64,000 bases of DNA from the NCBI GenBank assembly GCA_021832305.1, contig JAKBLB010000002.1, positions 44,794 to 108,793 on the forward strand, read 5' to 3'. Positions 2,128 through 49,434 of the stretch are shown here, piece after piece. The notes below the pieces were generated by a model. It made no database searches, was not told where the DNA came from, and worked only from the letters and a program-made list of their open reading frames with translations. Each line of letters starts with the position of its first letter. Position 1 is the stretch's first letter. A program made the translations under genes and the position numbers. The DNA comes from Pseudomonadota bacterium (lineage in GTDB: Bacteria > Pseudomonadota > Gammaproteobacteria > Burkholderiales > Ferrovaceae).

Positions 2128-2487
2128 TCAGTCATGGGCCGGACTGATTTTGGTCACGGTGTATTGGTCTTTACCCGACCGTACAAGGTCGAAATCGATT
2201 TTTTCCCCAGCGGTTACCTGACGGAGCATCTGTTTGTCCTTCACGGCAAATGTCATGGTCATGGGGGGCCATGGAATGCTGTTGATCGGGCCGTGCGAAA
2301 TCGTTACCTGACCGGCAGATGCATCCATTTTTTTTACAATCCCGGTTGCATGGTGAACCTTTCCTGTCATTTTGTCAGCCCTTGGGCCCGACATCGACAT
2401 GTCTTTCATGTTCATATCGTCAGCCAAAGCCAAATCAGTGGCAGAGAGCAAAGCCAGAGCCATTGTCGTGATGCGAAGCGTATTCAT
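2128..2487 (-). CDS. cusF: Periplasmic Cu/Ag-binding protein, CusF family
   Basis: Signal peptide, Met-rich N-terminus, ISHGPI...WPPMTMTF motif; last gene of RND operon. Confidence 0.88.
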
Positions 2488-5400
2488 GGTGATCTGTTCC
2501 TTTCAGTAGTGGAGGTGTTGCGGTTGAAGAAATGCCAGTGCCTGCCGAATCTGTGGGGTTGGCGCAGTAATAAATAGCCCACTGGAATGATAAACATGGA
2601 CAGTAGTGGCGCCGTCACCATTCCGCCCAGCATGGGCGCGGCAATTCGACTCATGATCTCGGATCCTGTGCCCTGTCCCCACAAAAGAGGCATGAGACCA
2701 GCCAGAATTACAGTTACGGTCATGGCCTTGGGGCGGACCCGCAAGACGGCCCCTTCGCGAATCGCTTCCAGAAGCAATGCGCGGGTGAGCGTTTGGCCCC
2801 CGCTCAAGCGAGCATCCAGTGCCTGGCGCAGGTAGATCAGCATCACCACGCCAAATTCGGCGGAGACACCAGCCAACGCAATGAACCCCACTCCCGTGGC
2901 TACGGAGAAGTTGTAATGTAATCCATAGAGCAGCCAAATTCCTCCAGTCAAGGCAAAGGGCAATGTCAGCAGGATCAGCGCCGCCTCGTCCAACCGCTCG
3001 AATATCAGGGTGAGCAATACAAAAATGATCAGCAAGGTGATCGGGACCACAATCTTCAGTCGTGCATTGGCGCGTTCCATGTACTCGAACTGACCGGAGT
3101 AAGTCATGCTCACTCCGGAAGGCAGAGGGATCTCACGCGTCACCGCTCGGCGTAAATCCCCCACCACCGAAGCCAGATCTCGTCCCCGCACATCCACATA
3201 AACCCAACTCGCCAGACGCGCATTTTCACTTTTCAGCATGGGGGGGCCCTGGGCGTAGTTTACCTGGGCCACCGTTCCCAGGGTGATCCACTGCCCACTG
3301 GGCGTGAACAGGGGCAATTGGCGCAGAGCATGCAGCGAATCCCGGTCCGCACGGGGATAGCGCACATTGATAGGAAAACGTGCCGTTCCCTCGACAGTTT
3401 CTCCGATGGCGTCACCACCGACCAAAGTGGTCACTGCGGCTTGAATGGTATCGATGTTGAGACCATAACGCGCTGCTGCCACACGATCGATGTTCACCGT
3501 AAGGTATCGCCCCCCGGTCAGACGCTCGGCAAAGGCGGAGGTCACGCCCGGGATTGCCTGCGCCACCTTTTCCACGGCCATGGCGACGGATTCCACCGTG
3601 GCCAGATCCGGTCCTGAAACCTTCACTCCGATGGGGCTCTTGATTCCTGTGGCCAACATGTCGATGCGGTTGCGAATGGGGGGAACCCAGAAATTGGACA
3701 ATCCGGGAATACGAACCGTGCGATCAAGTTCCGCCACCAACTTCTCTGGAGTCATGCCTGGACGCCACTGGTCGCGAGGTTTGAACTGGACCGTGGTTTC
3801 AAACATTTCCAAGGGAGCGGGATCTGTCGCCGTATCGGCTCGCCCTGCCTTGCCAAAGACACGCTTCACCTCGGGCACGGTCTTGATAAGGCGGTCGGTT
3901 TGTTGAAGCAACTCGGCAGCCTTGGCAGCAGATAAGCCAGGCAGCGCAGAGGGCATATAGAGCAGGTCTCCCTCGTCAAGGGGAGGGAGAAATTCCCCCC
4001 CCAGTTGGGAGACGGGCCATATGCTCGTCAGCAGCACCACCAGTGCGATGGCCAAAGTCGCTTTGGGATGCTGCAAGGCTCTGTTCAGCAGAGGTTGGTA
4101 CAGCGCAATCAATCCGCGATTCAGGGGGTTGGCTCGTTCCTCGGGGATCCTGCCACGAATCCAGTACCCCATCAGGATGGGGATCAAGGTCACCGCCAGC
4201 CCCGCTGCCCCTGCCATGGCATAACTTTTTGTAAAGGCCAGCGGAGCAAAGAGGCGTCCTTCCTGTGCTTCCAGTGTGAACACGGGCACGAACGACAGGG
4301 TGATGATGAGCAAACTGAAAAACAGTGCGGGCCCGACCTCTACGGCTGCTTCTGTCACTACCGCCCAGTGGGCGGCACCTTCCAGAAGTAATCCTGGGTG
4401 GTGGTGCTGCCAATGTTCGATTTTTTTATGGGCATTTTCGATCATGACCACGGCGGCGTCCACCATGGCTCCTACCGCAATGGCGATTCCTCCCAAAGAC
4501 AGGATATTGCCGTTGATGCCCTGGTAGCGCATCATGACAAAAGCCGCCAACACCCCCAAGGGTAAAGAGATGATGGCGACCAGAGCGGATCGGAAATGGC
4601 GCAGAAATAATCCGCAGACCAGCGCCACTACGATAAATTCCTCGATCAGTTTATGTTCCAGGTTGGCTGTGGCACGGTCGATCAACTGACTGCGGTCATA
4701 AGTGGGGACGATCTCCACCCCGGAGGGCAGGCTTTTTTGCAGAGAGATCAATTTCTCTTTCACGGCGGTGAGGGTGTCTCGCGCATTTTTCCCTGATCGT
4801 AAAATCACCACCCCGCCCGCGACTTCCCCCTGCCCATCGAGTTCGGCTATCCCCCGGCGCATTTGTGGACCTGTTTGAACCCGCGCCACATCTCCCAAAC
4901 GCACAGAAAAACCGTCATGGGTCGTCAAAGGGATCGTCCTGAAATCTTCCAGTGTCTTGAGATAACCTGTGGCGCGCACCATGTACTCCGCCTCACCCTG
5001 CTCCACCACGCCCCCTCCGGCTTCCTGATTTCCGCCACGCAGGGCTGCCACAATCTGATCCCCTGTGATGTGGTAGGCCGCAAGTTTGGCCGGATCTGGT
5101 ACCACTTGGTACTCGCGTACCATGCCGCCGATGGAGGCTACTTCGGCCACATTCGGCAAACTTTTGAGTTCATACTTGAGAAACCAGTCCTGTAGGGCGC
5201 GCAGGTCTCCTAGATCATGCTGACCGCTGTGATCCACCAACGCATATTCATAAATCCAACCGATTCCTGTGGCATCGGGACCCATGGAGGATTTGGCCGT
5301 GACTGGCAAGCGATTTTGAATCTGGTTGAGATATTCGAGAACCCTGGAACGGGCCCAGTAAAGATCCGTCCCGTCCTCAAACAGGACATAGACAAAAGAA

Positions 5401-5669
5401 TCGCCGAAGAAAGAATAACCCCGTACGGTTTTTGCCCCAGGAACGGACAGCATGGTGGTGGTCAGGGGATAGGTGACTTGATCCTCCACAATCTGGGGGG
5501 CTTGCCCCGGAAATGAGGTACGGATGATTACCTGAACATCGGAGAGATCCGGCAAGGCGTCCACAGGATTGGTGCGGACTGCCCATAGTCCTCCCAACAG
5601 TAGCAGCAAAGTAGCCAGCAAAACCAAAAAGCGATGGCTGATCGACCAGCGGATGAGCCGGGCGATCAT
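2484..5669 (-). CDS. cusA: Heavy-metal efflux RND permease, CusA/CzcA family
   Basis: [28 protein letters not shown] motifs; start set at the ATG overlapping the cusB stop. Confidence 0.95.
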
Positions 5670-6922
5670 TGTGGCGTCCCCGTTTTTTCCATGCGCGTCC
5701 ATACGCCCTTGAGGCTGGCTTCTGAATCGATCAGGAATTGTCCGGAAGTCACTATTTTTTGACCCTCCTGCAATCCAGAGAGGATTTCGGTTTTACCCTT
5801 GCCCTCCCGTCCCGGCACCACTTCCACAGGCAAAAAATGTCCTTCCTTCCCCATCGTGATGACCACATAGCGTTTCCCCGTGACGATGACTGCTTCTGCA
5901 GGTACCATGAGGACGTGGCTTTGGGTATGCTGTTCGATCCGAACCTTGGCGTACATCCCGGGGCGTAATAGCCTCCCCGGATTGGTCCATTCGATCCGCA
6001 ACCGTAGTGTTCGGGTATCCACATTCAAAACAGGCAGTACGGTTATGATTCTTCCAGTGAAGGTCTGTCCCGGTAGTCCTGTGAAGGTTGCTGATACCGA
6101 TTGCCCCACTGCGATTCCCTGCCCCAGTGCTTCCGGGATTTCTGTATCCATCCAGATCGTGCCCAGACCATTGATGCGCGCCAGTGTTTGACCGGGAGTG
6201 ACCGTCATTCCTGCGCGTACCCCCAACTCGCTCAAGACGCCTCCCTGTGGGGCCGTTACCGTCACCACAGCCTGGGGCGCATCGCTGTGATCCAGGAGGG
6301 TAACCTGTTCTTCAGTCATCCCCAATTGCTTCAAACGGTTTCGTGCCGCAGCGGTCAAATCAGGTTCATTGGCCTTTCGCAGGGCAATAAACTCCATCTG
6401 TGCGCCATACCATTCGGGAATACGCAAATCTGCCAAGGGCGCACCTGCGCCAATTACATCGTTGGGCGCAAGGGCATAGACCCGTTCCACCAACCCCGCA
6501 GAACGAGCTTGTATGATCGTTACCTGGCGTTCATCAAAAGTCAGCGTGCCTTCTGCTTCAACCGTAAGGTCCAGAGGACCTCGCTCCACCAGGGCCAGTT
6601 TAACCCCCGTATTTTGAAGTAGACGGGGATCGATCCTCACGCCTTCATCGATTTCCTTTGGATTCTCAGTGGCTACCATGGGGACGAGGTCCATGTCCAT
6701 GAAGGGCGATTTGCCCGGCTTGTCAAAGTGCTGGTCTGGTTTCATGGGGTCATACCAGTACACGATTCGCTGTCCCGTTTGATTGGGCTGGGTTTGGGCT
6801 GAAGGAATTTCCATCGGTGGGCGGTTGGAAGTACGCTGTCCCAGTCTGTACCCTGCGAGACCGCCCATCGTCATCAATCCCGCGATGGCTGCGATGAGTG
6901 CCCATACGCTTTTTCGATTCAT
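5666..6922 (-). CDS. cusB: RND membrane fusion protein, CusB family
   Basis: [27 protein letters not shown] heavy-metal motif; MFP-like body. Confidence 0.93.
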
Positions 6923-8199
6923 GGTTGCACCTCTTCGGACAGATAGCGTAAGACAGTTTCCGCGTTGCCCCGCCGCTCTTCCAGATCAACTCGTTTCATT
7001 TTGATGTCCAGTATCGAACGGCGGGAGTCGAGTACGGCTGTCAACGAACCTTTGCCGGAACGATAGGCGGCCATTGCCAAGCGAAACTTTTCCTGAGAAA
7101 GGGGGAGCCATTCCTGATCGACGCGCTCAATCTGATGCGACAGAGAAGTTTGCTCGGCCAGTTGGGTTTCCAGTTCCATGGTATGTTGGCGCAACATGGT
7201 TTCCCTTTCCTCGGCGACCTGTTCCAATTCCTGTCGCTGGGCCGCGATCTGGGGGTTTTGTCGGGTTCGAGCAAATATGGGCAAATCGATGGTGAACTGA
7301 ACGTTTACCATGTCACCAAAGGGGGGACCTAGGTGCTCATAGTCCAATTCCACGCCCCAATCCGGTCGTTTGGCGGCTTCCGCCAGGTCCACAGCCGCCT
7401 GGGCTGAAGCCTTCTGAGCCTCAAATACGGCAATATCCGGATGTTTATCCAGCGTATGGTGCAAATACTCCGTAGGCTCCAACTTGGCAGGAGGGCCGCC
7501 CGTCAAGGGTTGGTCGGCCACCACTCCGATCCATCGGGACAACTCGACGCGGGCAGTGGCAATGTCGCGTACCAGTTCATCCTTGCGGTCAGCCAGGGTA
7601 GCCGCTTCGCTTCGGGCTTGCAGGCTTTCCTCGGCGGTGCTCTGGGCGGCTGCCAATCGTGCAGTCGAAGCCAATGATTGGAGATGATTTTCTGCTTCCA
7701 ATTGGTCCAGCACCTTATACCGTTGCTCTGCGTAATAGACCTTTAGCCAGGCTAAGAGCGTTTGGCGCCGGATCGTCAAGCGTTCCACTTCCAACTCCAG
7801 GTCAGCACGGCTTACATTGGCCTGAGCCATGTGACGGGCCGCTTCCCGCTTTCCTCCGTTGGTCATTTCCTGCCGCACACCGATCACCTCCATGGTCAGG
7901 AAGTTCTGGCCTGTACTCCAGGCCTGCTCGCCTTGCACGGGCATGTTATTTATTCCTGTGACCAGTTTCGGGTCAGGTAACTCCCCGGCTGAGATCTGTC
8001 GTTGTTGTGCGGCCGCCAACGAATTTTGACGGGCTTTGAGTTCCGAGGCGTGGATTTCCGCCTGATCGATGGCCTCTTGATAACTCAGGGCATGACAGGA
8101 TGCGCTCCAGGCAAGAAGGGACAATGAGGATACAACATGCCTCAACAGAAAATGTTTTGACTTGAACAAGGGTGAACTCCTCCAGAATAATGCAAGCAC
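6919..8199 (-). CDS. cusC: TolC-family outer membrane factor, CusC-like (start uncertain)
   Basis: GELPDPKL, PDWGVELDY, helical OMF repeats; first structural gene of cusCBAF. Confidence 0.85.
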   Translation of the reverse strand: MLALFWRSSPLFKSKHFLLRHVVSSLSLLAWSASCHALSYQEAIDQAEIHASELKARQNSLAAAQQRQISAGELPDPKLVTGINNMPVQGEQAWSTGQNFLTMEVIGVRQEMTNGGKREAARHMAQANVSRADLELEVERLTIRRQTLLAWLKVYYAEQRYKVLDQLEAENHLQSLASTARLAAAQSTAEESLQARSEAATLADRKDELVRDIATARVELSRWIGVVADQPLTGGPPAKLEPTEYLHHTLDKHPDIAVFEAQKASAQAAVDLAEAAKRPDWGVELDYEHLGPPFGDMVNVQFTIDLPIFARTRQNPQIAAQRQELEQVAEERETMLRQHTMELETQLAEQTSLSHQIERVDQEWLPLSQEKFRLAMAAYRSGKGSLTAVLDSRRSILDIKMKRVDLEERRGNAETVLRYLSEEVQP

Positions 8200-8245
8200 C
8201 AGTTTCGTGGCGCTCCACGAAACTGCTCGTCATCAGGAAGAAAAA

Positions 8246-26406: not shown

Positions 26407-28038
26407 GTGATCGGTTCCATGATGGGACGTCCGTTGCTGGTTTCTGCCTTGCTGGAACATGCGGCCCGCTGGCATGGAAAAACCGCCGTGGTTTCCCAAC
26501 GCGCGCCCGGGGAAGGGGTGAGCCTTGATTGGGCTGGCATCGATCAGCGAGCCCGCCGTCTGGCTCAGGCCCTGATTCGTCTGGGCGTGCGTCCGGGAGA
26601 TCGGGTCGGGACGCTGGGCTGGAATCATCACCGCCATCTGGAAGCCTATTACGCGATCCCGGGCATCGGGGCGATTTGTCATACCCTCAATCCGCGCCTG
26701 TTTCCGGAACAACTGGTCCAAATCCTGCAAGATGCGGAAGACGTGGGTTTGCTGGTGGATTCCGGGCATCTTTCCCTGTTGCCGATCCTTGAAAACCTGG
26801 GCGTGCGTCTGCCCTGGGTGATCGTGATGGGCGAACCCGGTGACGCGACTGTGCCGGTCCTGGGGACGTGGTTCGACTATGAAACCCTGCTGGCCGGAGA
26901 AAATGGAGGTTTCGACTGGCCTGACTGGCCGGAGGAGCAAGCCGCCGGTCTCTGTTTTACCTCGGGAACCACGGGGCGACCCAAAGGGGTCGCGTACTCC
27001 CACCGTTCCACCGTGCTTCACGCCATGAGTGTGGCTTTGCCCGACAGTCTCGGGTTTTCGGCTTGTGATTCGGTATTGCCGGTGGTTCCGCTGTTCCATG
27101 CCAATGCCTGGGGATTTCCTCATGCGGCCGCTCTGGTAGGGGCAAAACTGGTGTTGCCCGGCCCCTGGCTGGATGGCGCAACCCTGTATGCCCTGTTGGA
27201 GCGCGAAGAGGTCACGATCAGTGCGGGAGTCCCCACGGTGTGGCGGGGTTTGATGACCTTTCTTCAGGCGCAGGGGGTGACATTGCATCATCTGCGCCTG
27301 CTCGGGGTGGGAGGAGCGGCTTGCCCTTCGACGCTGGTGCGTTATTTCGAGCGTGAACAGAAAGTGACGGTGCGGCCGGGGTGGGGAATGACGGAAACCA
27401 GTCCGGTGGCGGCGCTCATGAGCCCCAAACGGGCACAGACAGGGTTATCCGGTGAGGCGCGCTGGCGCTGGTTGGATAAGGCGGGGCGTCCTCCCTTTGG
27501 TGTGGATATGCGGTTGGTGGACAGTGAGGGGCGGGAAGTGATCCGGGATGGAATGACCTCCGGTCATCTGGAGGTGCGCGGCCCGTGGATTTGTGAATAC
27601 TACTGGAAAGAGGCACGGGGGACGGGGCGGGCCTGGTTTCCGACCGGCGATGTGGCCACTCTGGATGAAGAGGGATTCCTGCAGATTACGGATCGTGTCA
27701 AGGATTTGATCAAGAGTGGGGGAGAATGGATCAGTTCGGTTCAGGTGGAACAGGCGGCCTTACTTCATCCTGCCCTGCGGGAAGCGGCGGTGATCGGATT
27801 CCCTGACCCGCATTGGGGGGAACGACCGCTGTTGATCATGGTGCTGGAAGCGGGAAAGGCGGTGGAGGAAAAAGAATTACGACGACACCTGGCCCGGCAT
27901 GTGGCGCGCTGGTGGGTGCCCGATCGCTTTCTGACCGTGGACGGTCTGCCTTATACCGCTACGGGCAAGGTGGACAAGGTGGCTTTGCGCCAGCGTCATG
28001 GCGGATGTGGGGTTGATTTGCCCGGGGTTCGGACATAA
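26407..28038 (+). CDS. Long-chain fatty acid-CoA ligase (AlkK/DmdB-like)
   Basis: [38 protein letters not shown]. Confidence 0.88.
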
Positions 28039-28088
28039 AAAAGACCAGATTCGACCGCGTGGGCGGAAGAAACCTGGTCCAAATGACT

Positions 28089-28108
28089 ACGGGGCATTCA
28101 AGCCCCGT
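28089..28108 (-). terminator. Hairpin downstream of cold-shock gene
   Basis: ACGGGGC-ATTCAA-GCCCCGT; weak U-tract. Confidence 0.4.
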
Positions 28109-28116
28109 TCACGCAC

Positions 28117-28320
28117 CTAGGCGTTTTGAATGTTTGAGGCTTGCTTTCCCTTGGGTCCCTGGGTGACATCGAAGGAGACTTTCTGACCTTCCTTCAGGGT
28201 TTTGAACCCGCCCATCTGGATGGCGGAAAAATGCGCGAAGAGATCTTCGCTTCCGTCATCGGGGGTGATGAAACCGTAACCTTTAGAATCGTTGAACCAC
28301 TTGACTGTACCTGTTGCCAT
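28117..28320 (-). CDS. Cold-shock protein (CspA/CspD family)
   Basis: [27 protein letters not shown]; divergent from clpS. Confidence 0.96.
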
Positions 28321-28655
28321 GTTTGCTTTCCTGTTGATGATTTGGGCCTTAAAACCCGGATAAGGTTTGAGTTTCAAGGCCAGCAAACGGCAAAACCGGT
28401 GATGCAGACAACTTGGAACCAAACTCCAGTTGCACTTTTACGCGAGTTTGGGTCTGATCGTCAAGAGGGAATCCGGGTTTTTTTGGGAAAAAGGTCGGTT
28501 TTGTATAAAAAATGATCAGAAATGGATTTTTTGAGTAAAGGGGTTGCGAAAATTCTTGAAAAGTTTAGACTGAAACCATATCTTCGAAGGCAGTGGGAAG
28601 GGGAGATCGGGGGCGGTGAGTTTCCTCACGGTTGACTGGATCCGGTGGGGGGGAG

Positions 28656-28964
28656 ATGAGTCGGGAATTGACAACGGTGCTGGAAAGAAGGGAGATCCGG
28701 GCGAATCCGCCACCGCTCTTCGATGTCCTGTTGCTGAATGACGATTACACCCCCATGGAATTTGTGGTGGACGTGCTCGGACGGGTGTTCGGTCTGGGGC
28801 AGGAGGCGGCAGTACGGGTCATGTTGCAGGTTCATACGGAGGGTCGTGGACTCTGTGGCACTTATCCGCACGATATTGCCGCAACGCGGGTGGCGCGCGT
28901 CGTCACTCTGGCGCGCGCAGCGCAACATCCTTTGCAATGTATCATGGAGGAACGAGGATCATGA
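28656..28964 (+). CDS. clpS: Clp protease adaptor ClpS
   Basis: [26 protein letters not shown]. Confidence 0.96.
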
Positions 28965-31234
28965 TTGCCCAAGAACTGGAAGTCAGTCTACACATGGCCT
29001 TCGTGGACGCACGTCAGAAGCGCCACGAGTTTATCACTGTGGAGCATCTGTTGTTGTCCCTGACGGAAAATGCCGCCGCACTGGAGGTATTGCAGGCCTG
29101 TGGTGCCGATGTCGGGGGGTTGCGCGAAAAGTTGAGCACGTTCATCCAGGAAAACAATCCTCAGACCGGGGGAACCGGGACAGTGGATACCCAGCCCACG
29201 CTGGGCTTTCAGCGGGTCATTCAGCGCGCTATCCTGCATGTTCAATCCTCGGGAAAAAAGGAGGTGACCGGTGCCAACGTTCTGGTGGCCATCTGCGGGG
29301 AAAAGGATTCCCATGCCGTGTTTTTCCTCAACCAGCAGGGCATTACCCGTCTGGACATGGTGAACTTCATGATTCACGGCGTGAGCAAGGTGAAGAGTTC
29401 CGCGTCTCTCCAAAAAGAAGAGGCAACCGCCGATGGAGAGAGCGAGGTAGTCGCCGGACGGGAATTACAAAACTTCACAGTTGATCTCAATGCGCAGGTG
29501 GTTGCGGGAAAAATCGACCCCCTCATTGGACGGGATCGGGAAGTGGAGCGAGTCGTCCAGATCCTGTGCCGCCGCCGCAAGAACAATCCTCTCCTGGTGG
29601 GAGAAGCCGGGGTGGGTAAAACCGCCATCGCCGAAGGACTGGCCTCGCGCATCGTGGGCGGGGAAGTCCCCGAAATTCTCAAGTCTGCCACGGTTTACAG
29701 CCTCGACATGGGGGCTTTGCTGGCGGGGACCAAATACCGGGGGGATTTCGAACAACGGCTCAAGGCGGTGCTCAGACAGTTGAAGGAAGACCCCCACAGC
29801 ATCCTGTTCGTTGACGAGATTCATACGCTGATCGGCGCAGGCGCCTCTTCAGGAGGGACTCTGGATGCTTCCAACCTGCTGAAGCCTGCGCTTTCGAGGG
29901 GGAATCTGCGCTGCATCGGTGCGACGACCTACACCGAGTTTCGCGGTGTTTTCGAGAAGGATCATGCCTTGGCCCGGCGGTTCCAGAAGGTGGATGTGAG
30001 CGAGCCCTCCGTGGAGGATACGGTGCAGATCCTGCGCGGGTTGAAGTCTCGTTTCGAGGTCCACCACGGGGTTCGCTACAGTGATGCGGCCATCACCAGT
30101 GCGGCGGAACTGGCGGCCCGTTTCATCAACGATCGTCATCTGCCGGACAAGGCCATCGATGTGATCGACGAGGCGGGGGCGGCGCAACGCATTCTCCCCA
30201 AGTCCCGGCAACGCAAGTGGATCGGCAAGGCGGAAATCGAGGATATCGTGGCCAAGATTGCCCGTATTCCCGTGCACAACATCACCCGTTCCGACCGCAC
30301 CGCGCTCAAGACGCTGGATCGCGACCTGAAAGCGGTGGTCTTTGGTCAGGATCGGGCCATCGATGCCTTGAGTGCCGCCATCAAAATGGCGCGTAGTGGG
30401 TTGGGGAATCCCCAAAAACCCGTGGGTTCTTTTCTGTTTTCCGGACCGACGGGGGTGGGCAAGACGGAAGTGGCTCGCCAACTGGCTTATGTCCTGAAAG
30501 TGGAACTGATCCGTTTCGACATGTCCGAGTACATGGAGCCCCATGCCGTCTCCCGTCTCATTGGCGCGCCACCGGGATATGTGGGGTTCGACCAGGGGGG
30601 GTTGTTGACGGAAGCCATCACCAAAAACCCGTACTCGGTCCTGTTGCTGGACGAAATTGAAAAAGCGCACCCCTCCATCACCAACATACTGCTTCAGGTG
30701 ATGGACCATGGAACTTTGACGGACAACAATGGGCGCAAGGCAGATTTTCGGAATACCATTCTGATCATGACCACCAATGCGGGGGCCGAGGCCCTGACCC
30801 GTACCAGCATCGGTTTCATGAGCGCACAAACCCAGGGCGGGCAGGGCGAGGAAGAAAAGGAGATCAAGCGCCTGTTTTCTCCCGAATTTCGCAATCGGCT
30901 GGATGCGCGAATCTCCTTCGCGGCTCTGGACAGCGACATCATTCTGCGGGTGGTGGACAAGTTCCTCATGCAACTCGAGTCCCAATTGCATGAAAAACGT
31001 GTGGAAGCCACCTTCACCGAACGCTTGCGGGCCTATTTGGCGCGCCAGGGCTTCGATCCCCTGATGGGCGCGCGTCCCATGGCGCGCTTGATACAGGATA
31101 CGATCCGGCGCGCCCTGGCGGACGAATTGCTGTTCGGGCGTCTGGCTCAGGGAGGGAAGGTGGTGGTGGATCTGAACGAGGAAAACAAGATTCGACTCGA
31201 GTTTGAAGAAAACCTGGCTGAAAGCGTGCATTGA
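28961..31234 (+). CDS. clpA: ATP-dependent Clp protease ATP-binding subunit ClpA
   Basis: [27 protein letters not shown], two AAA+ modules. Confidence 0.97.
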
Positions 31235-31247
31235 CCCGTTAAAAACC

Positions 31248-31277
31248 TTCCTCCCCCCGCAGTCTGGCCTTTATAAT
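31248..31277 (+). promoter_or_regulatory. Putative promoter for xfp-ackA-atpG-atpC
   Basis: TATAAT at 31272-31277 in the clpA-xfp gap; weak -35. Confidence 0.45.
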
Positions 31278-31309
31278 GGCCCCACCAAGTCTAACGGGGG
31301 GAGGGGTTT

Positions 31310-33667
31310 ATGGATCCATTTTCTGATGCTGAAGAGTTGGCGCGCATGGATGCGTGGTGGCGGGCCGCCAACTACCTGTCCGTGGGTCAAATCTATCTGA
31401 AGGACAACCCGCTACTCGAGCGTCCGCTGACGCTGGAGGACATCAAACCCCGTCTGCTGGGGCACTGGGGGACGACGCCCGGACTCAATTTCATCTACGT
31501 TCACATGAATCGGGTCATTCTGGCGCGGGACCTGTCCATGATCTACCTGGCGGGACCGGGTCACGGCGGACCGGGAATGGTGGCCAACACCTGGCTGGAA
31601 GGCACCTACAGCGAAATTTATCCGCAGGTTTCCCGGGACCGGGCGGGGATGCGCCGCCTGTTCAGGCAGTTCTCCTTTCCGGGCGGGATCCCCAGTCATG
31701 TGGCGCCGGAAACGCCCGGTTCGATCCATGAGGGCGGGGAGTTGGGGTATGCCCTTTCTCATGCCTACGGGGCCGTGTTTGACAATCCGGACCTGATCGC
31801 CTGCTGTGTGATAGGGGATGGGGAAGCCGAGACCGGGCCCATGGCCGCCTCCTGGCATTCCAATAAATTTCTCGATCCGCGCCGGGATGGGGCTGTGCTG
31901 CCGATCCTGCATCTGAACGGTTACAAGATCGCCAATCCCACGATATTGGGGCGGATGCCCGAGGAAGAAGTGACAGCCCTGTTCCAGGGCTATGGTTACC
32001 AACCTCACTGGGTGTCGGGCGATGATCCCATGACCATGCATGCGCAGATGCGCGCTACGCTGAACCAGGTGCTGGATGACATCCGGGAGATACAACGGGT
32101 CGCTCGTTCGGGACGGGGAGCGATCCTCCGGACGCATTGGCCCATGATCATCCTGCGCAGTCCGAAGGGGTGGACCGGTCCAAAGACCGTGGATGGACAG
32201 AAAACCGAAGGGTTCTGGCGCGCGCATCAGGTTCCCTTGTCTGAACTGCGCTCACGCCCCGACCATCTCCAACTTCTGGAAGACTGGATGCGTTCTTACC
32301 GCCCTCAGGAACTGTTTGATGCCGAGGGACATCTGCGTCCCTCCCTGGCGGCCCTGGCCCCTCTGGGTACGCGCCGTATGAGCGCCAATCCGCACGCCAA
32401 TGGGGGGCTTTTGCGGCGCGATCTGGTCTTGTCCGATTGGCGCACCCATGCCCTGTCGGTACCCCAGGCAGGACAACAGGAAGCCGAAGCAACCCGGATC
32501 ATGGGGCGTTTTCTGAGGGATGTCATGGCTTCCAATCAAGACAACTTCCGTTTGTTCGGCCCGGATGAAACGGCGTCCAATCGCCTGAATGCCGTATTTG
32601 AAGTGACGGACCGGACCTGGGAACTGCCCGTGCTTCCCGAGGATGACCATCTGGCGGCAGATGGACGGGTCATGGAAATTCTCTCCGAGCACACTTGCCA
32701 AGGCTGGCTGGAAGGCTATCTGCTGACGGGGCGCCATGGCGTGTTCTCGTGCTATGAGGCGTTTATCCATCTGGTGGATTCCATGTTCAACCAGCATGCC
32801 AAGTGGCTCAAGACCACGGCGCACCTGCCCTGGCGTCCTCCCCTGGCCTCGCTCAATTATCTGTTGACTTCCCATGTCTGGCGCCAGGACCACAATGGGT
32901 TTTCCCATCAGGACCCCGGTTTTCTGGATCATGTGGTCAACAAGAAGGCCGATGTCATTCGGGTCTATCTTCCGCCGGATGCCAACACCCTGTTGTGTGT
33001 GACCGATCATTGCCTGCGTAGCCTGCATCGGGTCAATGTGATCGTGGCCGGCAAGCAGCCTGCCTTGCAGTGGCTGGATCGGGATGCCGCCGCCGCCCAT
33101 GTGGCGGCAGGGATCGGCCGGTGGGACTGGGCCAGTTCCGAAGGTAACGGCGTCCCTGATGTGGTCATGGCCTGCTGTGGTGACGTGCCCACTCTGGAGA
33201 CCCTGGCAGCAGTGGATATTTTGCGCCGCGAATTGCCGGATCTGCGGATACGGGTCGTGAACGTGGTGGACCTGATGACCCTTCAACCCCATGAAGAACA
33301 TTCCCATGGGCTCTCGGCGCCGGATTTCGAGGCCCTGTTCACGCCCCATTGCCCGGTCATCTTTGCTTTCCATGGCTATCCCTGGCTGATCCATCGTCTC
33401 ATTTATCGCCATGCCAACAGTGCCCATTTTCATGTGCGCGGGTACAAGGAAGAAGGGACCACCACCACGCCCTTCGACATCACCGTGCTCAATGAGTTGG
33501 ACCGTTTCCATCTGGTCATGGATGTGCTCGACCGGGTGGCTGTTCCGGCGGAGCGGGGTGCGCTCTTGCGGCAACAGATGGTGGATTATCTGACGGCCCA
33601 TCGTGCCTATGTGTGCGAGTTTGGTGAAGATCAAGCGGAAATTCAGGAATGGCGGTGGCCCCACTAA
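31310..33667 (+). CDS. xfp: Phosphoketolase (XFP family)
   Basis: [53 protein letters not shown]. Confidence 0.96.
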
Positions 33668-34728
33668 CTCTTCTGGTTCTCAACAGTGGTTCCTCTTCTT
33701 TGCGTGCCACCCTGTTTCGGGGGGGAGAGGGAATCCGTCACTGGCATTTTTCCGGAACCACGGATCACGAAGGCGCGCTTCAGTCCCTGCTGAACGATCT
33801 GGAAGGCCAGCGCCCGGATGGCGTGGTTCACCGGCTGGTGCATGGGGGCGCCGTCGCGGAGGGGGCACGGGTGATCGATGGGGTGGAGCGGAGTCGTCTC
33901 GAGGCATTGGTGCCTCTGGCCCCGCTTCATCTGCCTGCCAATCTGAGGGGCGTAGACCTCTGCACGGCCTGTTTTCCCGTACCCCAGATCGCCTGTTTCG
34001 ATACGGCCTTTCATGCCACCTTGCCCGCCCTGGCCATGCGCCTGCCCGTTCCTGCCCGTTTTCATCTGCGCAAATTCGGTTTTCATGGCTTGAGTTATGC
34101 TCATCTGGCGCGGCGCCTGCCTGGGGTTCTGGGTCTGCGGCGCGCCCTGGGGAGGATCGTGGGGCTGCATCTCGGACAAGGGGCCAGTGCCTGTCTCCTG
34201 CATCACTTGACGTCCGTCGAGACGACCATGGGATATAGCCCGGCGGGAGGGCTGGTGATGGGGACGCGCAGCGGGGATCTGGACCCGGGGGTCATGCTGG
34301 CACTGGGGCTGGAGTTGACATGGGATGAACTGGCCCAGGTGGTTTACCATGAGATGGGCTTATGGGCCTTGTCCGGGGGAATCAGCGCCGACATGAAAAC
34401 CTTGTTGGCGGATGGTCGGGAAGAGGCCCGTTTTGCCGTGGAATTTTTTTGTCGGCGGGTGGCGCAGAGCGTGGGCGCCATGGCCACCCTGTTGGGCGGG
34501 CTGGATGCGCTGGTCTTTACCGGCGGCATTGGAGAGCATGCCGGGGCAGTTCGGTCGCTCATCGTGCAGTCCTTGTCTTTTCTCGGGTTTACCCTGGACG
34601 AGGGCGCCAATCAGGAAAATGCGCCCTTCATTTCCACGGCGCAGAGTCTTCCCGTCCTGATCATTCCCGCCGACGAGGAAGACCTGATGCGTGAGGTGGC
34701 GACACCGCTCTTCACGCTCCGGCACTGA
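33649..34728 (+). CDS. ackA: Acetate/propionate kinase
   Basis: [51 protein letters not shown]. Confidence 0.93.
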
Positions 34729-34738
34729 GGCAGGGGCC

Positions 34739-35614
34739 ATGGCCAATCTCCAGGAAATCCGGAGCAAAATCGGGACCGTACAGAATTTGCAGAAGTTGAC
34801 GCGAGCCATGGAGATGGTGGCGCGTAGCAAGATCGGCAAGATCATGATGCGCATGGAGGCAGCCCGTCCCTTTGGCGAGAAGGTGCGCGTCATTGCGGCC
34901 CATATGCACCATGCCCGTCTCGAGTACCACTCTCCCTACCTGACCCAGCGCATGCCCATGAAACGGGTGGGACTGATTCTGGTGACCACCGACAAGGGGA
35001 TGTGTGGCGGTTTGAATACCCGCTTGTTCCGCCAATTGGGAGAGCATCTGAGGGAATGGAGCCGGAACGGGATGGTACCGGAAGTGTGCGTGATCGGCAA
35101 TCAGGGGTTGAGTTTCATGCGCCGTCTGGGTTTGCCGGTGGTTGCGCAGGTGGTGGGACTGGGAGACACGCCCCGGATGGAACGACTGGTCGGGCCTCTG
35201 GATGTGGTCCTCAAGAAATTTCGGGAAGGTCGGATCGATGGCGTATTCCTGGCCTATTCGCATTTTGTCAACGTGCTGGTTCAGCGCCCCGTGGTGGAAG
35301 TCCTGTTGCCGCTCTCGGGTGAGCGACTGGGCGCGCCGACGGGAGCCTGGGACTACCTGTACGAACCGGATCCATCGACGGTCGTGGATCGCATGCTGCG
35401 CCGCTACCTGGAAACCTTGATCTGGCTGGCGGTGGCCGAGAACATGGCTTCCGAGCAAGGGGCGCGGATGATGGCGATGAAGGCGGCCAGTGACAATGCC
35501 CGGGAAGCAATGGAAGACCTTCAGCACCTCTACCACCGTTCCCGTCAGGAACAAATCACCCGCGAACTGGTCGAGATCACCTCCGGGGCGGCAGCGACGG
35601 GAGGGGTAGGATGA
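34739..35614 (+). CDS. atpG: F1 ATP synthase gamma subunit paralog (orphan)
   Basis: EIRSKI, AMEMVA, TTDKGMCGGLN, WDYLYEPD, ENMASEQGARMMAMKAASDN, ITRELVEITSGAAA. Confidence 0.9.
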   Translation: MANLQEIRSKIGTVQNLQKLTRAMEMVARSKIGKIMMRMEAARPFGEKVRVIAAHMHHARLEYHSPYLTQRMPMKRVGLILVTTDKGMCGGLNTRLFRQLGEHLREWSRNGMVPEVCVIGNQGLSFMRRLGLPVVAQVVGLGDTPRMERLVGPLDVVLKKFREGRIDGVFLAYSHFVNVLVQRPVVEVLLPLSGERLGAPTGAWDYLYEPDPSTVVDRMLRRYLETLIWLAVAENMASEQGARMMAMKAASDNAREAMEDLQHLYHRSRQEQITRELVEITSGAAATGGVG

Positions 35615-36039
35615 AGTTGTTCCAGGTGGATATCGTCAGTCTGGAACGATCGGTTTTTTCGGGGCAGGCTTCCTTCGTGGTGATCCCGGGGGAACAGGGC
35701 GATTTGGGAATTTTGCCGGGCCATGCTCCGCTCATGGCGGAATTGCGTCCGGGCTGGGTGCGGGTGGATCAGGGAGATCCCGTGGCCGAAGAGCATTTTT
35801 ATGTTTCCGGTGGCGCGGTGGAGGTCCAGCCGGAACGGGTAACCATCCTGCTCGATTTCGTCCTGGCAGCGCCGGAAGACACCGGCGGGGAAGAGCAGGA
35901 GAGGCAGCAGGCCCGGGAGAATTTGTTGCGTGCGCGGGTATCGGCGCTCGAATATGCCCAGATGGAAGCGGCTCTCTACAAGGCCTTGAATGGCTTGCAG
36001 AGTGGGCAACATCCCCTGCGGCGCAAGAGAATCCGTTGA
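35611..36039 (+). CDS. atpC: F1 ATP synthase epsilon subunit paralog (orphan)
   Basis: DIVSLERSVFSG, GDLGILPGHAPL, YVSGGAVEVQP; helical C-terminal domain ending RRKRIR. Confidence 0.9.
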   Translation: MKLFQVDIVSLERSVFSGQASFVVIPGEQGDLGILPGHAPLMAELRPGWVRVDQGDPVAEEHFYVSGGAVEVQPERVTILLDFVLAAPEDTGGEEQERQQARENLLRARVSALEYAQMEAALYKALNGLQSGQHPLRRKRIR

Positions 36040-46939: not shown

Positions 46940-48193
46940 ATGGAACCGGCGGGAGAGCCCTTTGCTGATCTGATCGAGTTTTTTCAGTCGCTGAGCCAAT
47001 ACCGGCATATCTGGCAAGTGCCCGTCCTGGGTGCGGCCCTTGCGGTGGGATTCGGGGCTGCCCAGCTCCTGGGGAAACGTCTGGCCCATCAGACGGAAGG
47101 CGAAAAACTGAAACGCCTCAAGGGGATTTTATTTGCGGGAAGCAGCGCTGCGGCCCTGATTCTGCTGCGTCACTATTTTGGTCAGGGGCGCCATGCGCCT
47201 TTGCTGCATATGGCCCTGGCCCTGGCCCTGGCCTTGGCTGTGGCGCGCATGGGGGTGTATGTCCTGCACTACGGGGTGGGGTCCAAACGGCTGGTTTTTG
47301 TCCAGACCCTGTTCCTGCGCCTGGTATGGGTGGTCTTTGCCCTGCATGTCACCGGACTCCTCGATCCGGTACGGGTCTGGTTGGGGGAAACGGACTTCAG
47401 CATGGGCGGAACCCGGATGACACTGTGGCAGTTGTTGCAGGGGACCCTGGCCATCGGCCTGTTGGGGGTGGCGGCCTTGTGGCTGGGTTCCTGGTTGGAG
47501 CGACGCCTGAGTCGGGCCGAATCCCTGGATCCCCATGTGCGCGTCATCGTGACCAAATTGACGCGGGGTTTCCTGTTCTTTTTTGCGGTGTTGATGGCTT
47601 TCCCTCTGGTGGGAATCAACGCCACTTTTCTGTCGGTGCTGGGCGGTGCGCTGGGCGTAGGCCTGGGGTTTGCCCTGCAAAAGGTGGCGAGCAACTATGT
47701 GAGCGGGTTCATTCTGCTCATGGATCGTTCCGTGCGCATGGGAGACGTGATCACCGTGGAAGGACGGCAAGGCACGGTGATCCGTCTGGATGCGCGCTGC
47801 ATCACCCTGTCGGGCACGGATGGAACGGCGTTCATCGTGCCCAATGAAACCTTTTTGACACAGACCATCATCAATCATTCGCGCATGGGGATCGGCGTCT
47901 GTCATGGCCTGACCATCGAAGTGTCCTATGAATCGGATCTGGTCGCGGTACAGACCTTGATGGAAGAAGTCGCCCGTCGTCAAAGCCGCATCCTGACCGA
48001 CCCGGCACCGGGTGCGGTGGTGGGCAAGATGACGGGGCATGGGTTCGAAGTGACCCTGTATTACTGGATACCGGACCCCGGAAAAAGCGACTCGGGGCTG
48101 CGCTCCGTTCTGATGCAGGAGATTCGCCAGGGCTTGCGCGCGGCGGGTATCACGGTTCCCCTCCGGGATGGTGCGCAGGCGGTCTTGCCCTGA
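46940..48193 (+). CDS. Small-conductance mechanosensitive channel (MscS family)
   Basis: GALGVGLGFALQ, NYVSGFILL, GDVI, IVPNE. Confidence 0.9.
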   Translation: MEPAGEPFADLIEFFQSLSQYRHIWQVPVLGAALAVGFGAAQLLGKRLAHQTEGEKLKRLKGILFAGSSAAALILLRHYFGQGRHAPLLHMALALALALAVARMGVYVLHYGVGSKRLVFVQTLFLRLVWVVFALHVTGLLDPVRVWLGETDFSMGGTRMTLWQLLQGTLAIGLLGVAALWLGSWLERRLSRAESLDPHVRVIVTKLTRGFLFFFAVLMAFPLVGINATFLSVLGGALGVGLGFALQKVASNYVSGFILLMDRSVRMGDVITVEGRQGTVIRLDARCITLSGTDGTAFIVPNETFLTQTIINHSRMGIGVCHGLTIEVSYESDLVAVQTLMEEVARRQSRILTDPAPGAVVGKMTGHGFEVTLYYWIPDPGKSDSGLRSVLMQEIRQGLRAAGITVPLRDGAQAVLP

Positions 48194-48246
48194 TCTGTTA
48201 TAATAGGCCCTTTGCCTGCAATTTTTCCTTCTTTGGAGGAGCGCAC

Positions 48247-49434
48247 ATGATCTATTCCGGTATGCTGTCCCTGTCCTGGGTGGGCGAGGTGGTCGTTGCC
48301 CTGGTGTTGACCCATATCACCATTGCCAGCGTCACCATCTTTCTGCATCGCCATCAGGCCCACCGCGCCCTGGAGTTGGGGCGCGTGGCCAGCCATTTTT
48401 TTCGTTTCTGGCTGTGGTTGACCACGGGCATGGTCACCCGGCAATGGGCGGCCATCCACCGCAAACACCACGCCAAATGCGAAACGCCGGAAGATCCCCA
48501 CAGCCCGCAGGTATTGGGCTTGGCGCGGGTACTGTGGGGAGGGGTGTTCCTCTACGTCAAGGAAAGCCGCAATGCGGAAACCATGGCGCGGTTTGGGCAT
48601 GGTACCCCCAACGACTGGCTTGAAAACCATGTTTACGCGGCCCATGAACGTCTGGGCGTGACCCTCATGGCGCTGGTGGACATGGCGTTGTTCGGCCTGG
48701 TGCCCGGACTGTTGATCTGGCTGGTCCAGATGGTGTGGATTCCTTTCTGGGCGGCGGGCGTCGTGAATGGGGTGGGCCATTTCTGGGGATACCGCAATTT
48801 CAATTGCAAGGATGCCAGTACCAATCTCGTTCCCTGGGGAATTTTGATCGGCGGTGAAGAGTTGCACAACAACCATCATACTTTTGCGACCTCGGCCAAA
48901 CTTTCCCACCACTGGTATGAATTCGATATCGGCTGGATGTATATTCGCATCCTGCAGGCCCTCGGACAGGCTCGGGTCAAGTCGGTGGCCCCCCAGGTGC
49001 GATTTGATCAGGCCAAGCGTGAATGTGATCTGGTGACCCTCAATGCCATCATCCGCAACCGTTATGATGTCATGAGACGCTATACCCGGGAACTTGCCAC
49101 GACCTGTGCGCGAGAACTCCATCATCTCGGGGAATCCGCCAAATTGCCCTCGCTCTCCCGGCGTGAGGTGACCGCCATGGTCGGACGCTGGCTGCACCAT
49201 CCCGATCACGAATTGCCCGGGGCTGAACGCCACACATTGGCCCAGGCGATGGAAATCAGTCACCCGCTCGGCACGGTGGTTCAAATGCGCCGCGAACTGG
49301 AACAGTTATGGACGCGCACCAATGCCAGCGCCGAACAGTTGCTGGAACAGTTGCGCGATTGGTGTCGGCGTGCCGAGGCCAGCGGAATTCAGGAATTGAT
49401 GGGATTTTCGCGGACCTTGCGGGCCTATGCCTGA
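48247..49434 (+). CDS. Acyl-CoA (delta-9-like) fatty acid desaturase
   Basis: His boxes HRHQAH, HRKHH, HNNHH. Confidence 0.92.
   Translation: MIYSGMLSLSWVGEVVVALVLTHITIASVTIFLHRHQAHRALELGRVASHFFRFWLWLTTGMVTRQWAAIHRKHHAKCETPEDPHSPQVLGLARVLWGGVFLYVKESRNAETMARFGHGTPNDWLENHVYAAHERLGVTLMALVDMALFGLVPGLLIWLVQMVWIPFWAAGVVNGVGHFWGYRNFNCKDASTNLVPWGILIGGEELHNNHHTFATSAKLSHHWYEFDIGWMYIRILQALGQARVKSVAPQVRFDQAKRECDLVTLNAIIRNRYDVMRRYTRELATTCARELHHLGESAKLPSLSRREVTAMVGRWLHHPDHELPGAERHTLAQAMEISHPLGTVVQMRRELEQLWTRTNASAEQLLEQLRDWCRRAEASGIQELMGFSRTLRAYA

Follow-up and report, generated by a model that had tools for sequence, protein, structure and literature searches.

An orphan F1 gamma-epsilon pair in a phosphoketolase-acetate kinase cassette of a Ferrovum-like bacterium: a possible alternative ATP synthase rotor

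The window, which is the whole 64 kb stretch of betaproteobacterial DNA analysed here, carries a tight cassette of four genes in the order xfp-ackA-atpG-atpC on the forward strand (31310-36039; Table 1). ORF and domain calls find all four reading frames intact. The last two genes encode F1 gamma and epsilon subunits of an orphan clade and are called atpG' and atpC' below, with the products gamma' and epsilon'. The junctions agree with those reported in a preliminary description of this DNA. As read from the sequence, xfp and ackA overlap by 19 nt with the ackA ATG at 33649, or by 13 nt if translation of ackA begins at the GTG at 33655, which is better spaced and corresponds to the start in orthologue L001. 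The atpG' gene starts 10 nt after the ackA stop codon (34726-34728), and atpG' and atpC' overlap by 4 nt in a common ATGA (35611-35614). The GTG at 34691, given as the atpG start in the ORF listing, was rejected, since the family models and all orthologues start at 34739. Downstream, alaS stands apart, with its start at 36116 after a 76-nt spacer. The gene overlaps imply translational coupling, and the four genes probably form one transcription unit in several lineages.

Table 1. Features of the xfp-ackA-atpG'-atpC' cassette in window coordinates
Feature	Position	Strand	Remarks
TATAAT, -10-like hexamer	31273..31278	+	in the 75-nt clpA-xfp spacer; a G-rich ribosome-binding site follows
xfp, xylulose-5-P/fructose-6-P phosphoketolase, 785 aa	31310..33667	+	XFP_N, XFP, XFP_C; NF003619
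ackA-like compact acetate/propionate-family kinase, 359 aa	33649..34728	+	PF00871; start may be GTG 33655
atpG', orphan-clade F1 gamma subunit, 291 aa	34739..35614	+	PF00231, TIGR01146
atpC', orphan-clade F1 epsilon subunit, 142 aa	35611..36039	+	PF02823, TIGR01216

The preliminary description had also placed a -10 box before xfp. A perfect TATAAT does lie 31 nt upstream of the ATG, but it has no acceptable -35, and because a matching -35 is absent the two-hexamer consensus scan calls no plus-strand promoter there. The reported lack of alpha, beta, delta and Fo genes holds for the entire window. The alpha/beta P-loop motif is found in none of its frames, and AtpA, AtpD and AtpH of a canonical operon, used as tblastn queries, have no other match in it.

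The two upstream genes encode a phosphoketolase and a putative acetate/propionate-family kinase. Xfp is full length, with all three XFP domains and 1435.5 bits against a cutoff of 962 on NF003619, and its orthologues are 78-86% identical. AckA passes the Pfam model PF00871 (250 bits, cutoff 22) and falls below the NCBIfam cutoffs (TIGR00016, 249 vs 293; NF005462, 270 vs 486). It is shortened by three deletions in the N-domain but retains the catalytic residues N10, R91, H123, D150, H182, R243 and E387 (E. coli numbering). In the established pathway, Xfp and AckA together convert xylulose 5-phosphate or fructose 6-phosphate via acetyl phosphate to ATP and acetate. The pair is known from the bifid shunt, and the cyanobacterial phosphoketolase serves energy maintenance in the dark or under anoxia. 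The window genes resemble such a substrate-level phosphorylation module in that they adjoin and retain the catalytic residues of both enzymes. They differ from it in the ATP synthase subunit genes attached and in the shortened AckA below the NCBIfam cutoffs. We know of no Xfp-AckA module with ATP synthase subunits, and literature searches found none.

Gamma' is a full-length F1 gamma subunit. It passes PF00231 (281.7 vs 39.9 bits) and TIGR01146 (280.9 vs 194.45), lies just under the cutoff of the proteobacterial equivalog NF004144 (370 vs 372) and scores 80.4 bits on the N-ATPase gamma model TIGR03323, for which the cutoff is 282.35. Its length equals that of canonical gamma without a redox-cysteine insertion, and in the alignment it keeps the N- and C-terminal helices, the foot domain and DKGxCG. 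Its gene lies between ackA and atpC' rather than between atpA and atpD. Identity to 79 canonical betaproteobacterial gammas is 49-56%; these are 62-84% identical to the reference gamma P0079, with a mean pairwise identity of 0.69. Alignment with canonical gammas gives nine family-specific positions. T17, A29, A35, Q36 and L87 are invariant in 80 canonical gammas, R40, N60, H65 and S241 are kept in 80-99% of them, and both groups are replaced in nearly all orphans. The substitutions cluster in the N-terminal helix and the EQSARM segment.

Epsilon' is the more changed of the two. Its N-terminal beta-sandwich is readily recognized (PF02823, 94.7 vs 27 bits; TIGR01216, 101 vs 67.25) and retains the GHAP motif. 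The C-terminal domain model PF00401 is reported for canonical neighbours and not for the window epsilon' or any orphan epsilon. The alignment shows a C-terminal segment of helix-hairpin length with an EYAQxEA motif. In the C-terminal domain, epsilon' shares an identity of 0.21 with canonical epsilons, which reach 0.57 among themselves. A12, I46, A81, T83, the RGxDLDEA linker, A102, A118 and Q128 are replaced, and the basic tail is 3 residues longer than in canonical epsilon. The family-specific substitutions cluster in the C-terminal regulatory domain and the linker.

Gamma' and epsilon' belong to a wider family. The orphan gammas are monophyletic in 100 of 100 neighbour-joining bootstraps, and so are the orphan epsilons (100/100). 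Canonical gammas are monophyletic in only 12 of 100 replicates, and the orphan clade nests inside the betaproteobacterial gammas. The orphan gammas share VQN[LM]QK, MVA[RQ]SK, DKGMCG and EQGARM, and the orphan epsilons have IVS[LMI]E, a lost ADTAxRGxDLDEA and an extended basic tail; the window proteins carry both signatures, and their genes show the adjacency of atpG and atpC without atpD that defines the clade. Across Betaproteobacteria, members without alpha or beta occupy nine or more different genomic contexts, in genomes of sulfur oxidisers and of soil or groundwater organisms (pairs lacking atpA/atpD: L005, L007, L010-12, L014, L094, L099 and L100/101). These contexts include rnr-rlmB, a beta-CASP RNase, yicC-...-kup-gmk-rpoZ-spoT, soe-like genes, the vicinity of glg/sox, and pairs standing alone; three of them adjoin RNases. 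In Sulfuriferula, the orphan gamma and epsilon genes lie 3.4 kb apart in separate units. The order atpH-A-G-D-C is intact in 79 of the 80 betaproteobacterial genomes sampled for comparison. These data support the view that gamma'-epsilon' is an additional, divergent set and not a fragment of the housekeeping operon. The preliminary description knew of no account of such a module and literature searches found none either, so the stand-alone rotor-pair family is apparently new and undescribed.

Ferrovum-like lineages that carry the cassette number at least four at species level, with two different chromosomal settings. Three relatives (L001-L003) keep the four-gene order with a gamma 81% identical to that of the window, and L004 keeps it with 80% identity and other flanks (lexA-CitMHS). 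In L096/L097, the order ackA-G-C-alaS is seen with a gamma 91% identical. Since the four-gene order recurs in independent contigs, it is not a chance arrangement. The link to xfp-ackA that the preliminary description proposed is therefore conserved among several Ferrovum-like lineages, but it is absent from L094, the deepest member of the Ferrovum clade, and from all other orphans; in the nearest relatives, the pair has other neighbours. Because most orphan members lack xfp-ackA, the link is specific to one sublineage. The Ferrovum-like host is an iron bacterium of acid mine drainage.

All four cassette genes are under strong purifying selection. Their dN/dS values of 0.04-0.16 (xfp 0.05-0.09, ackA 0.12-0.16, atpG' 0.04-0.08, atpC' 0.10-0.16) resemble that of clpA (0.05) and are approximate, because dS exceeds 1.3 and is saturated. 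In the metatranscriptome X21, 75% of the atpG-atpC words are present, contigs span xfp, ackA, atpG and atpC continuously, and one RNA contig covers 34986-35508 within atpG' with zero mismatches. Another extends from clpA into xfp, and transcription might therefore read through from clpA. RNA depth declines along the operon from 30-440 in xfp to 9-20 in atpC, although contig depth is a poor measure of expression, and DNA carry-over may contribute to the signal over the cassette. A silent or neutrally evolving pair, which was raised at the outset as a way in which the idea could fail, does not agree with the RNA contigs and the dN/dS values.

We favour, with a probability of about one half, the reading that gamma'-epsilon' is a paralogous extra rotor pair which is swapped into a fraction of F1Fo and coupled to xfp-ackA. 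The window organism, a Ferrovum-like acidophilic betaproteobacterium, would have a normal atp operon with its own gamma and epsilon, and it would possess in addition a co-evolving central-stalk pair whose translation is coupled to that of xfp-ackA within a single operon. The older stand-alone family would have arisen within canonical betaproteobacterial gamma and epsilon and then have been retained as a two-gene unit while the genomic neighbourhood changed. Both orphan proteins keep the residues that are invariant in rotor subunits and apparently also their complete fold, and gamma'-epsilon' may substitute for gamma-epsilon in some F1Fo complexes. Judging from E. coli F1 (PDB 3OAA), the closest solved relative, the N-terminal gamma helix around M23 and EQxARM/R242 presumably lie opposite the DELSEED loop of beta and the epsilon C-terminal domain in its inserted state, and the changed positions appear to concentrate where gamma contacts that domain and the beta DELSEED collar. 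Changes at this interface most likely alter epsilon-dependent auto-inhibition and direction bias. The altered property would thus be the bias between hydrolysis and synthesis, together with auto-inhibition, rather than catalysis or docking on the c-ring. In this lineage, expression of the isoform would accompany that of Xfp and AckA, when the cell may gain its ATP at substrate level, at the expense of sugar phosphates from the Calvin cycle or from stores, and not from Fe(II) respiration. As to direction, we can offer only a weak guess, a mode in which ATP hydrolysis drives protons out of the cell and so keeps pH and pmf steady; a tighter brake may be the outcome instead. The general form of the proposal is somewhat more tentative: several betaproteobacterial lineages might switch the F1Fo central stalk between two isoforms, with gamma'-epsilon' changing the mode (pump versus synthase, or brake) and being hard-wired to Xfp-AckA in Ferrovum-like bacteria. 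The alternative rotor set of the preliminary description is supported in part: it is additional, divergent, conserved, selected and transcribed, its entry into the housekeeping alpha3beta3/c-ring and a blocking or retuning of hydrolysis in starvation are putative, and its tie to xfp-ackA is not family-wide.

That functional tie may be incidental because it is missing in L094 and the other orphans. Gamma'-epsilon' could be a true alternative rotor pair that hitch-hikes in the xfp-ackA operon, where any expressing promoter would do. The nine or more unrelated contexts of the family and the restriction of xfp-ackA to one sublineage speak for this possibility. Against it, the four genes have remained a unit while their synonymous sites diverged to saturation, they stayed together in the second chromosomal setting of L004, whether moved or retained, and the gene overlaps imply translational coupling. 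We consider incidental placement possible, but clearly less likely than a functional connection of the rotor pair with Xfp-AckA.

It is unlikely that the two proteins act outside F1Fo, for instance by sensing nucleotides as a free epsilon-type protein, by capping surplus c-rings or Fo, or by serving another hexameric ATPase. Such a role would suit the lack of neighbouring alpha, beta or Fo genes in all contexts, the separate units in Sulfuriferula and the three contexts beside RNases. However, full gamma and epsilon folds and the invariant F1 rotor residues are retained, and the two subunits co-diverge as a pair. Their best matches are genuine F1 rotor chains: among solved structures, these are the E. 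coli F1 entries 3OAA and 5T4O, with E values of about 2e-86 for gamma and about 6e-22 for epsilon.

An exchangeable rotor presupposes a complete canonical operon elsewhere in the genome, as the preliminary description recognized. No contig or closed genome examined carries a canonical operon as well as the orphan pair. In the protein database, no canonical gamma of Sulfuriferula or of the window organism was found, no Ferrovum genome is among the matches listed in the betaproteobacterial genome scan, and no Sulfuriferula-named canonical gamma is among the matches at least 80% identical to the Sulfuricella gamma. The orphan pair could accordingly be the sole gamma and epsilon of the organism, relocated from a split operon. 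This is improbable for several reasons. A metagenome contig carries atpA followed by a collinear canonical-type gamma (...MVAASKM), and its depth of 7.99 (X1), 1669 (X2) and 2153.8 (X4) tracks that of the window locus (about 6.5, about 1320 and about 1900). The ratio stays at 1.13-1.26 over a 300-fold range of abundance in three metagenomes, co-abundance being evidence of binning grade, and in X4 this contig has the only atpA type deep enough for the dominant organism. Ferrovum JA12 has an intact canonical atpC-D-G-A-H-F-E (FERRO_04440-04500; PMC4725956 supplement), and the gene order is also intact in nearly all sampled relatives. Sole copies of essential genes would, moreover, not be expected to evolve faster than canonical gamma and epsilon, as the orphans do. 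On co-abundance and the congener genome, a canonical atp operon very probably coexists with the orphan pair. Least credible is neutral decay after duplication or transfer of an atp operon, with atpGDC reduced by the loss of atpD: origin by partial duplication is plausible for a clade nested in betaproteobacterial gammas, but decay is already contradicted by intact ORFs in every lineage, low dN/dS with saturated dS, transcription, and the age, wide distribution and conserved family-specific residues of the clade.

Rotor substitution by gamma'-epsilon' would have several partial counterparts. Like the canonical F1 central stalk, the pair has the same folds, lengths and invariant residues, including the epsilon beta-sandwich, and probably a two-helix C-terminal domain. 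Unlike canonical AtpG and AtpC (atpIBEFHAGDC), it is encoded outside the atp operon without atpD in between, and otherwise-invariant positions are replaced. In Arabidopsis, ATPC1 and ATPC2 provide a second gamma paralogue for the same alpha3beta3, and the rotor is regulated differently by tissue or condition. The chloroplast case is eukaryotic and nuclear and concerns gamma only, with a redox-cysteine insertion, whereas here epsilon is duplicated as well and is the most changed. The N-ATPase (atpDCQRBEFAG) is likewise a second F-type subunit set in some Proteobacteria, but it forms an entire enzyme in its own right, alpha, beta and Fo included, and the window lacks these other genes. Extrinsic inhibitors of F1Fo hydrolysis include mitochondrial IF1, Paracoccus zeta and cyanobacterial AtpTheta. 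The function proposed for gamma'-epsilon' resembles theirs in condition-dependent control of direction. These inhibitors are small add-ons on a normal enzyme, whereas here the rotor subunits themselves are duplicated.

Direction control of bacterial ATP synthase is commonly attributed to the epsilon C-terminal domain, to Mg-ADP inhibition or to small add-on inhibitors. If rotor exchange takes place, it would be a new control layer, with changes sitting on those regulatory surfaces, and the first bacterial case of regulation by ATP synthase rotor isoforms. It would bear on the old question of how acidophiles and chemolithoautotrophs keep up cytoplasmic pH and pmf when donor or O2 runs out and ATP comes from stored carbon. 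The signature residues and the missing atpD make the family easy to recognize, so its distribution and regulation can be tested in existing genomes and metatranscriptomes, and the two genes, being small, lend themselves to expression alongside the F1Fo of E. coli or Bacillus.

The observations on the atpG and atpC genes of the window fit a paralogous central-stalk pair, whose members evolve together and are maintained by selection in addition to the housekeeping pair. These genes (gamma' and epsilon') are orphans, standing without atpA and atpD, and they close a run of five tandem genes on the plus strand, clpA, xfp, ackA, atpG and atpC, which is followed by alaS. The genes are tightly packed. 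xfp and ackA overlap by 19 nt if ackA starts at its ATG, and by 13 nt with the better-spaced GTG at 33655. The ackA stop codon is followed by atpG after 10 nt, and an ATGA is common to the end of atpG and the start of atpC. All of these junctions read as the preliminary description had stated. Its claim that no further atp genes flank the pair also holds, as the 64-kb window contains no alpha/beta P-loop, and tblastn with AtpA, AtpD and AtpH finds none of them there. The -10 box that it placed before xfp is a perfect TATAAT 31 nt upstream, but it lacks a -35 element and is not called by a promoter scan. An Rfam search of the cassette region revealed no riboswitch or leader upstream of xfp.

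Features of the cassette and of the remaining window
Feature	Position	Strand	Remarks
CusCBA-type operon	2484-8229	-	outer-membrane factor, membrane-fusion protein with HMBD domain, AcrB-family pump
cspA thermoregulator 5'UTR match	28038-28384	-	RF01766; 59.9 bits vs gathering score 78; E 2.5e-13
clpA	28937-31234	+	
xfp	31310-33667	+	all three XFP domains; NF003619 1435 bits
ackA-like kinase	33649-34728	+	
atpG	34739 (ATG)-35614	+	
atpC	35611-36039	+	
alaS	start 36116	+	3' of atpC
Desaturase domain, then transposase	47932-49434	+	single stop-to-stop frame

The order xfp-ackA-atpG-atpC is conserved in relatives. It is present in three contigs of Ferrovum metagenome-assembled genomes (L001-L003), where the clpSA and alaS flanks are also kept, and it recurs in the JGI contigs L096 and L097. 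A further contig, L004, has the same four-gene order with other flanks, namely lexA and CitMHS upstream and unrelated genes downstream. The dN/dS ratios are 0.05-0.09 for xfp, 0.12-0.16 for ackA, 0.04-0.08 for atpG and 0.10-0.16 for atpC, compared with 0.05 for the neighbouring clpA, at dS values of 1.4-3.6 among cassette lineages, where synonymous sites are saturated. The cassette AckA is a compact variant. Compared with E. coli AckA, its N-terminal domain lacks about 16, 9 and 6 residues at three places, and all Ferrovum orthologues share these deletions. The catalytic residues are kept, and the protein scores under the NCBIfam cutoffs for acetate and propionate kinases. The kinase may act on more than acetyl-P.

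The cassette is also found in RNA. The study that provided the DNA runs also has metatranscriptomes, and these contain the atpG-atpC stretch, with 75% of its words in run X21. The X21 contigs span clpA to alaS without a gap, and one mismatch-free contig lies inside atpG. RNA depth decreases from xfp to atpC, contig depth being a crude measure in which DNA carry-over is possible. Selection and expression together counter the reading of the pair as a pseudogene remnant. In another RNA run, X23, a single contig of 2591 nt (28865-31455) connects clpA, the 75-nt spacer and the initial 146 nt of xfp, and depth in this region is 1022 at first and about 390 at xfp. Read-through from clpA may thus be a further source of xfp transcripts.

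The preliminary description asked for confirmation of a complete canonical operon elsewhere in the genome. The gene table of Ferrovum sp. JA12 gives a contiguous atpC-D-G-A-H-F-E (FERRO_04440 to FERRO_04500) and no phosphoketolase (PMC4725956). Metagenome contigs were aligned to the Sulfuricella atp operon. One contig (2189 nt in X1, 1198 nt in X4) carries an atpA match and, 540 nt further on, the collinear start of a gamma gene, whose N-terminus (32 residues) is of the canonical type. Its depth in the DNA runs X1, X2 and X4 is 7.99, 1669 and 2153.8, against about 6.5, about 1320 and about 1900 for the window locus. The ratio thus stays at 1.13-1.26 while abundance varies 300-fold. Among the atpA types in X4, only that of this contig reaches a depth compatible with the dominant organism. 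Two further canonical gamma types (depth 1126 and 834 in X2) do not follow the window in depth and so belong to other organisms. A degenerate DNA pattern for a second canonical type (MASGREIK) had no match in the JGI metagenomes, and since neither X4 nor X1 contains this type either, it is another organism's. Depth co-variation is good, binning-grade evidence that the window organism has a canonical atp operon beside the orphan pair. The depth-tracking contig is separate from that of the window. The protein P0047, considered as a possible partner of the orphan P0016 from the same assembled genome, is of the canonical type, but the samples it derives from are different. The metagenome-derived gamma N-terminus of 50 amino acids had no exact match in the protein database, only short partial proteins.

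Orphan pairs are not restricted to the cassette. Ferrovum assembled genomes and acid-mine-drainage metagenomes supply the closest gamma proteins (71-91% identity), and the next-best matches (55-60%) likewise stand alone. Two Ferrovum assemblies, GCA_010435995.1 and GCA_010436015.1, are among the genomes with an orphan pair. On a 133-kb soil contig (L005), atpG-atpC follows a beta-CASP RNase gene. Other pairs are found alone near glgA/pgi and soxYZAB (L010-12), simply alone (L014, L099), after rnr-rlmB with a gamma inside the Ferrovum clade (L094), or between yicC and kup-gmk-rpoZ-spoT (L100/101). The pair is split in Sulfuriferula sp. GW1, whose genome is complete (L007; CP170197.1: 2688199-2709062). 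Its epsilon gene follows a Fer4_11-NrfD-molybdopterin (SoeBCA-like) operon, itself preceded by TauE and DsrE genes, and the isolated gamma gene lies 3.4 kb downstream of epsilon, after a two-component system. A protein-database search with the Sulfuricella canonical gamma gave none named Sulfuriferula in the best 120 matches, all with at least 80% identity. Since these contexts differ, xfp-ackA is not a general partner of the orphan family; the linkage to these two genes is kept across the Ferrovum-like cassette contigs but is missing in the other orphans. Three independent pairs lie directly 3' of ribonuclease genes (beta-CASP/RNase J-like in L005, RNase R-RlmB in L094/L095, YicC in L100/L101), which may be coincidence or shared regulation. 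The plasmid collection contained only ordinary or mislabelled chromosomal atpG, and thus gives no sign of a plasmid-borne orphan pair.

An intact atp order is the rule among relatives. In a gamma scan of the genome collection, atpH-A-G-D-C was found in 79 of 80 betaproteobacterial genomes among the matches listed; these matches comprised at least 79 canonical operons and at least one orphan, with no Ferrovum and no genome appearing twice. In neighbour-joining trees rooted on E. coli, the orphan gammas form one clade in 100 of 100 bootstraps, and so do the orphan epsilons. Canonical sequences do not form a clade of their own, so the orphan family arose inside Betaproteobacteria. Mean gamma identity is 69% among canonical sequences, 50% between these and the Ferrovum-clade orphans, and 58% between these and other orphans.

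Five gamma residues that are invariant in 80 canonical sequences are changed in every orphan: T17 (to L/M), A29 (R/Q), A35 (I/V), Q36 (M/K/I/R) and L87 (M). R40, N60 and H65, which are 80-94% conserved among canonical gammas, are also changed in every orphan, and S241 (99%) is G in most. In epsilon, A12, I46, A81 and T83 are changed, and the ADTAxRGxDLDEA linker, A102, A118 and Q128 are also replaced. The C-terminal domain shares 21-28% identity with canonical epsilons, compared with 57% among the latter; the N-terminal domain is far less altered. The C-terminal tail is longer by three residues and more basic, although canonical tails are basic as well. The closest solved structures for both proteins are the rotor chains of E. 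coli F1. In that enzyme, the epsilon C-terminal domain, when inhibiting, inserts into the passage through the DELSEED collar of beta, a passage lined by two gamma regions: the N-terminal helix around M23 and the EQxARM/R242 segment. Mapping from the E. coli enzyme would place the orphan gamma changes at this passage.

Judged from sequence, gamma' and epsilon' appear to keep everything that defines rotor subunits, and their changes seem concentrated in the regulatory epsilon domain and the gamma surface that meets it. The simplest mechanism would thus be isoform exchange, in which the pair enters F1Fo and changes how epsilon controls the direction of the enzyme. Translational coupling would tie the pair to Xfp and AckA in the Ferrovum sublineage. 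These enzymes need no respiration to make ATP from sugar phosphates of the Calvin cycle or of storage, and the coupling suggests a role during lack of Fe(II) or O2. The exchange would either free ATP-driven proton extrusion or tighten the brake.

The nearest analogues of the orphan pair, which bears on bioenergetics, are the N-ATPase and the plant gamma isoforms. The N-ATPase is a complete enzyme, and a reading of the pair as N-ATPase is rejected because the model score is far under the cutoff. A chloroplast-type redox gamma is likewise rejected, as its insertion is absent. As the preliminary description had supposed, literature searches on second gamma/epsilon copies (atpG2/atpC2), Ferrovum phosphoketolase and Sulfuriferula ATP synthase gave no description of stand-alone gamma-epsilon pairs. 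In the supplements of Ferrovum papers, the canonical operon of JA12 was the only relevant entry. The available part of a survey of atp transcription units gives 98.6% standard units in Betaproteobacteria, lists N-ATPase-type extra clusters and reports no gamma-epsilon unit.

The window sequence was found only in mine-drainage and wastewater metagenomes, and its population is dominant in two of them (depth about 1300 and about 1900). The remaining window is ordinary chromosome with lon, a Cus-type RND pump, an oligopeptide ABC transporter, pyrD, panC, pcnB, purM and purN. The heavy-metal efflux operon of CusCBA type fits a mine-drainage organism. An insertion sequence with an ISL3-family DDE transposase adjoins or interrupts a fatty-acid desaturase gene. 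The match to the cspA thermoregulator lies upstream of a minus-strand cold-shock gene, where X23 RNA depth is very high (1500-1900). In X2 and X4 DNA, a contig of low depth (10 and 3.7, versus about 1300-1900) leads from 38578 back to position 35683, with 19 additional letters at the join. It is a rare rearranged variant in which the 3' end of alaS is linked to atpC.
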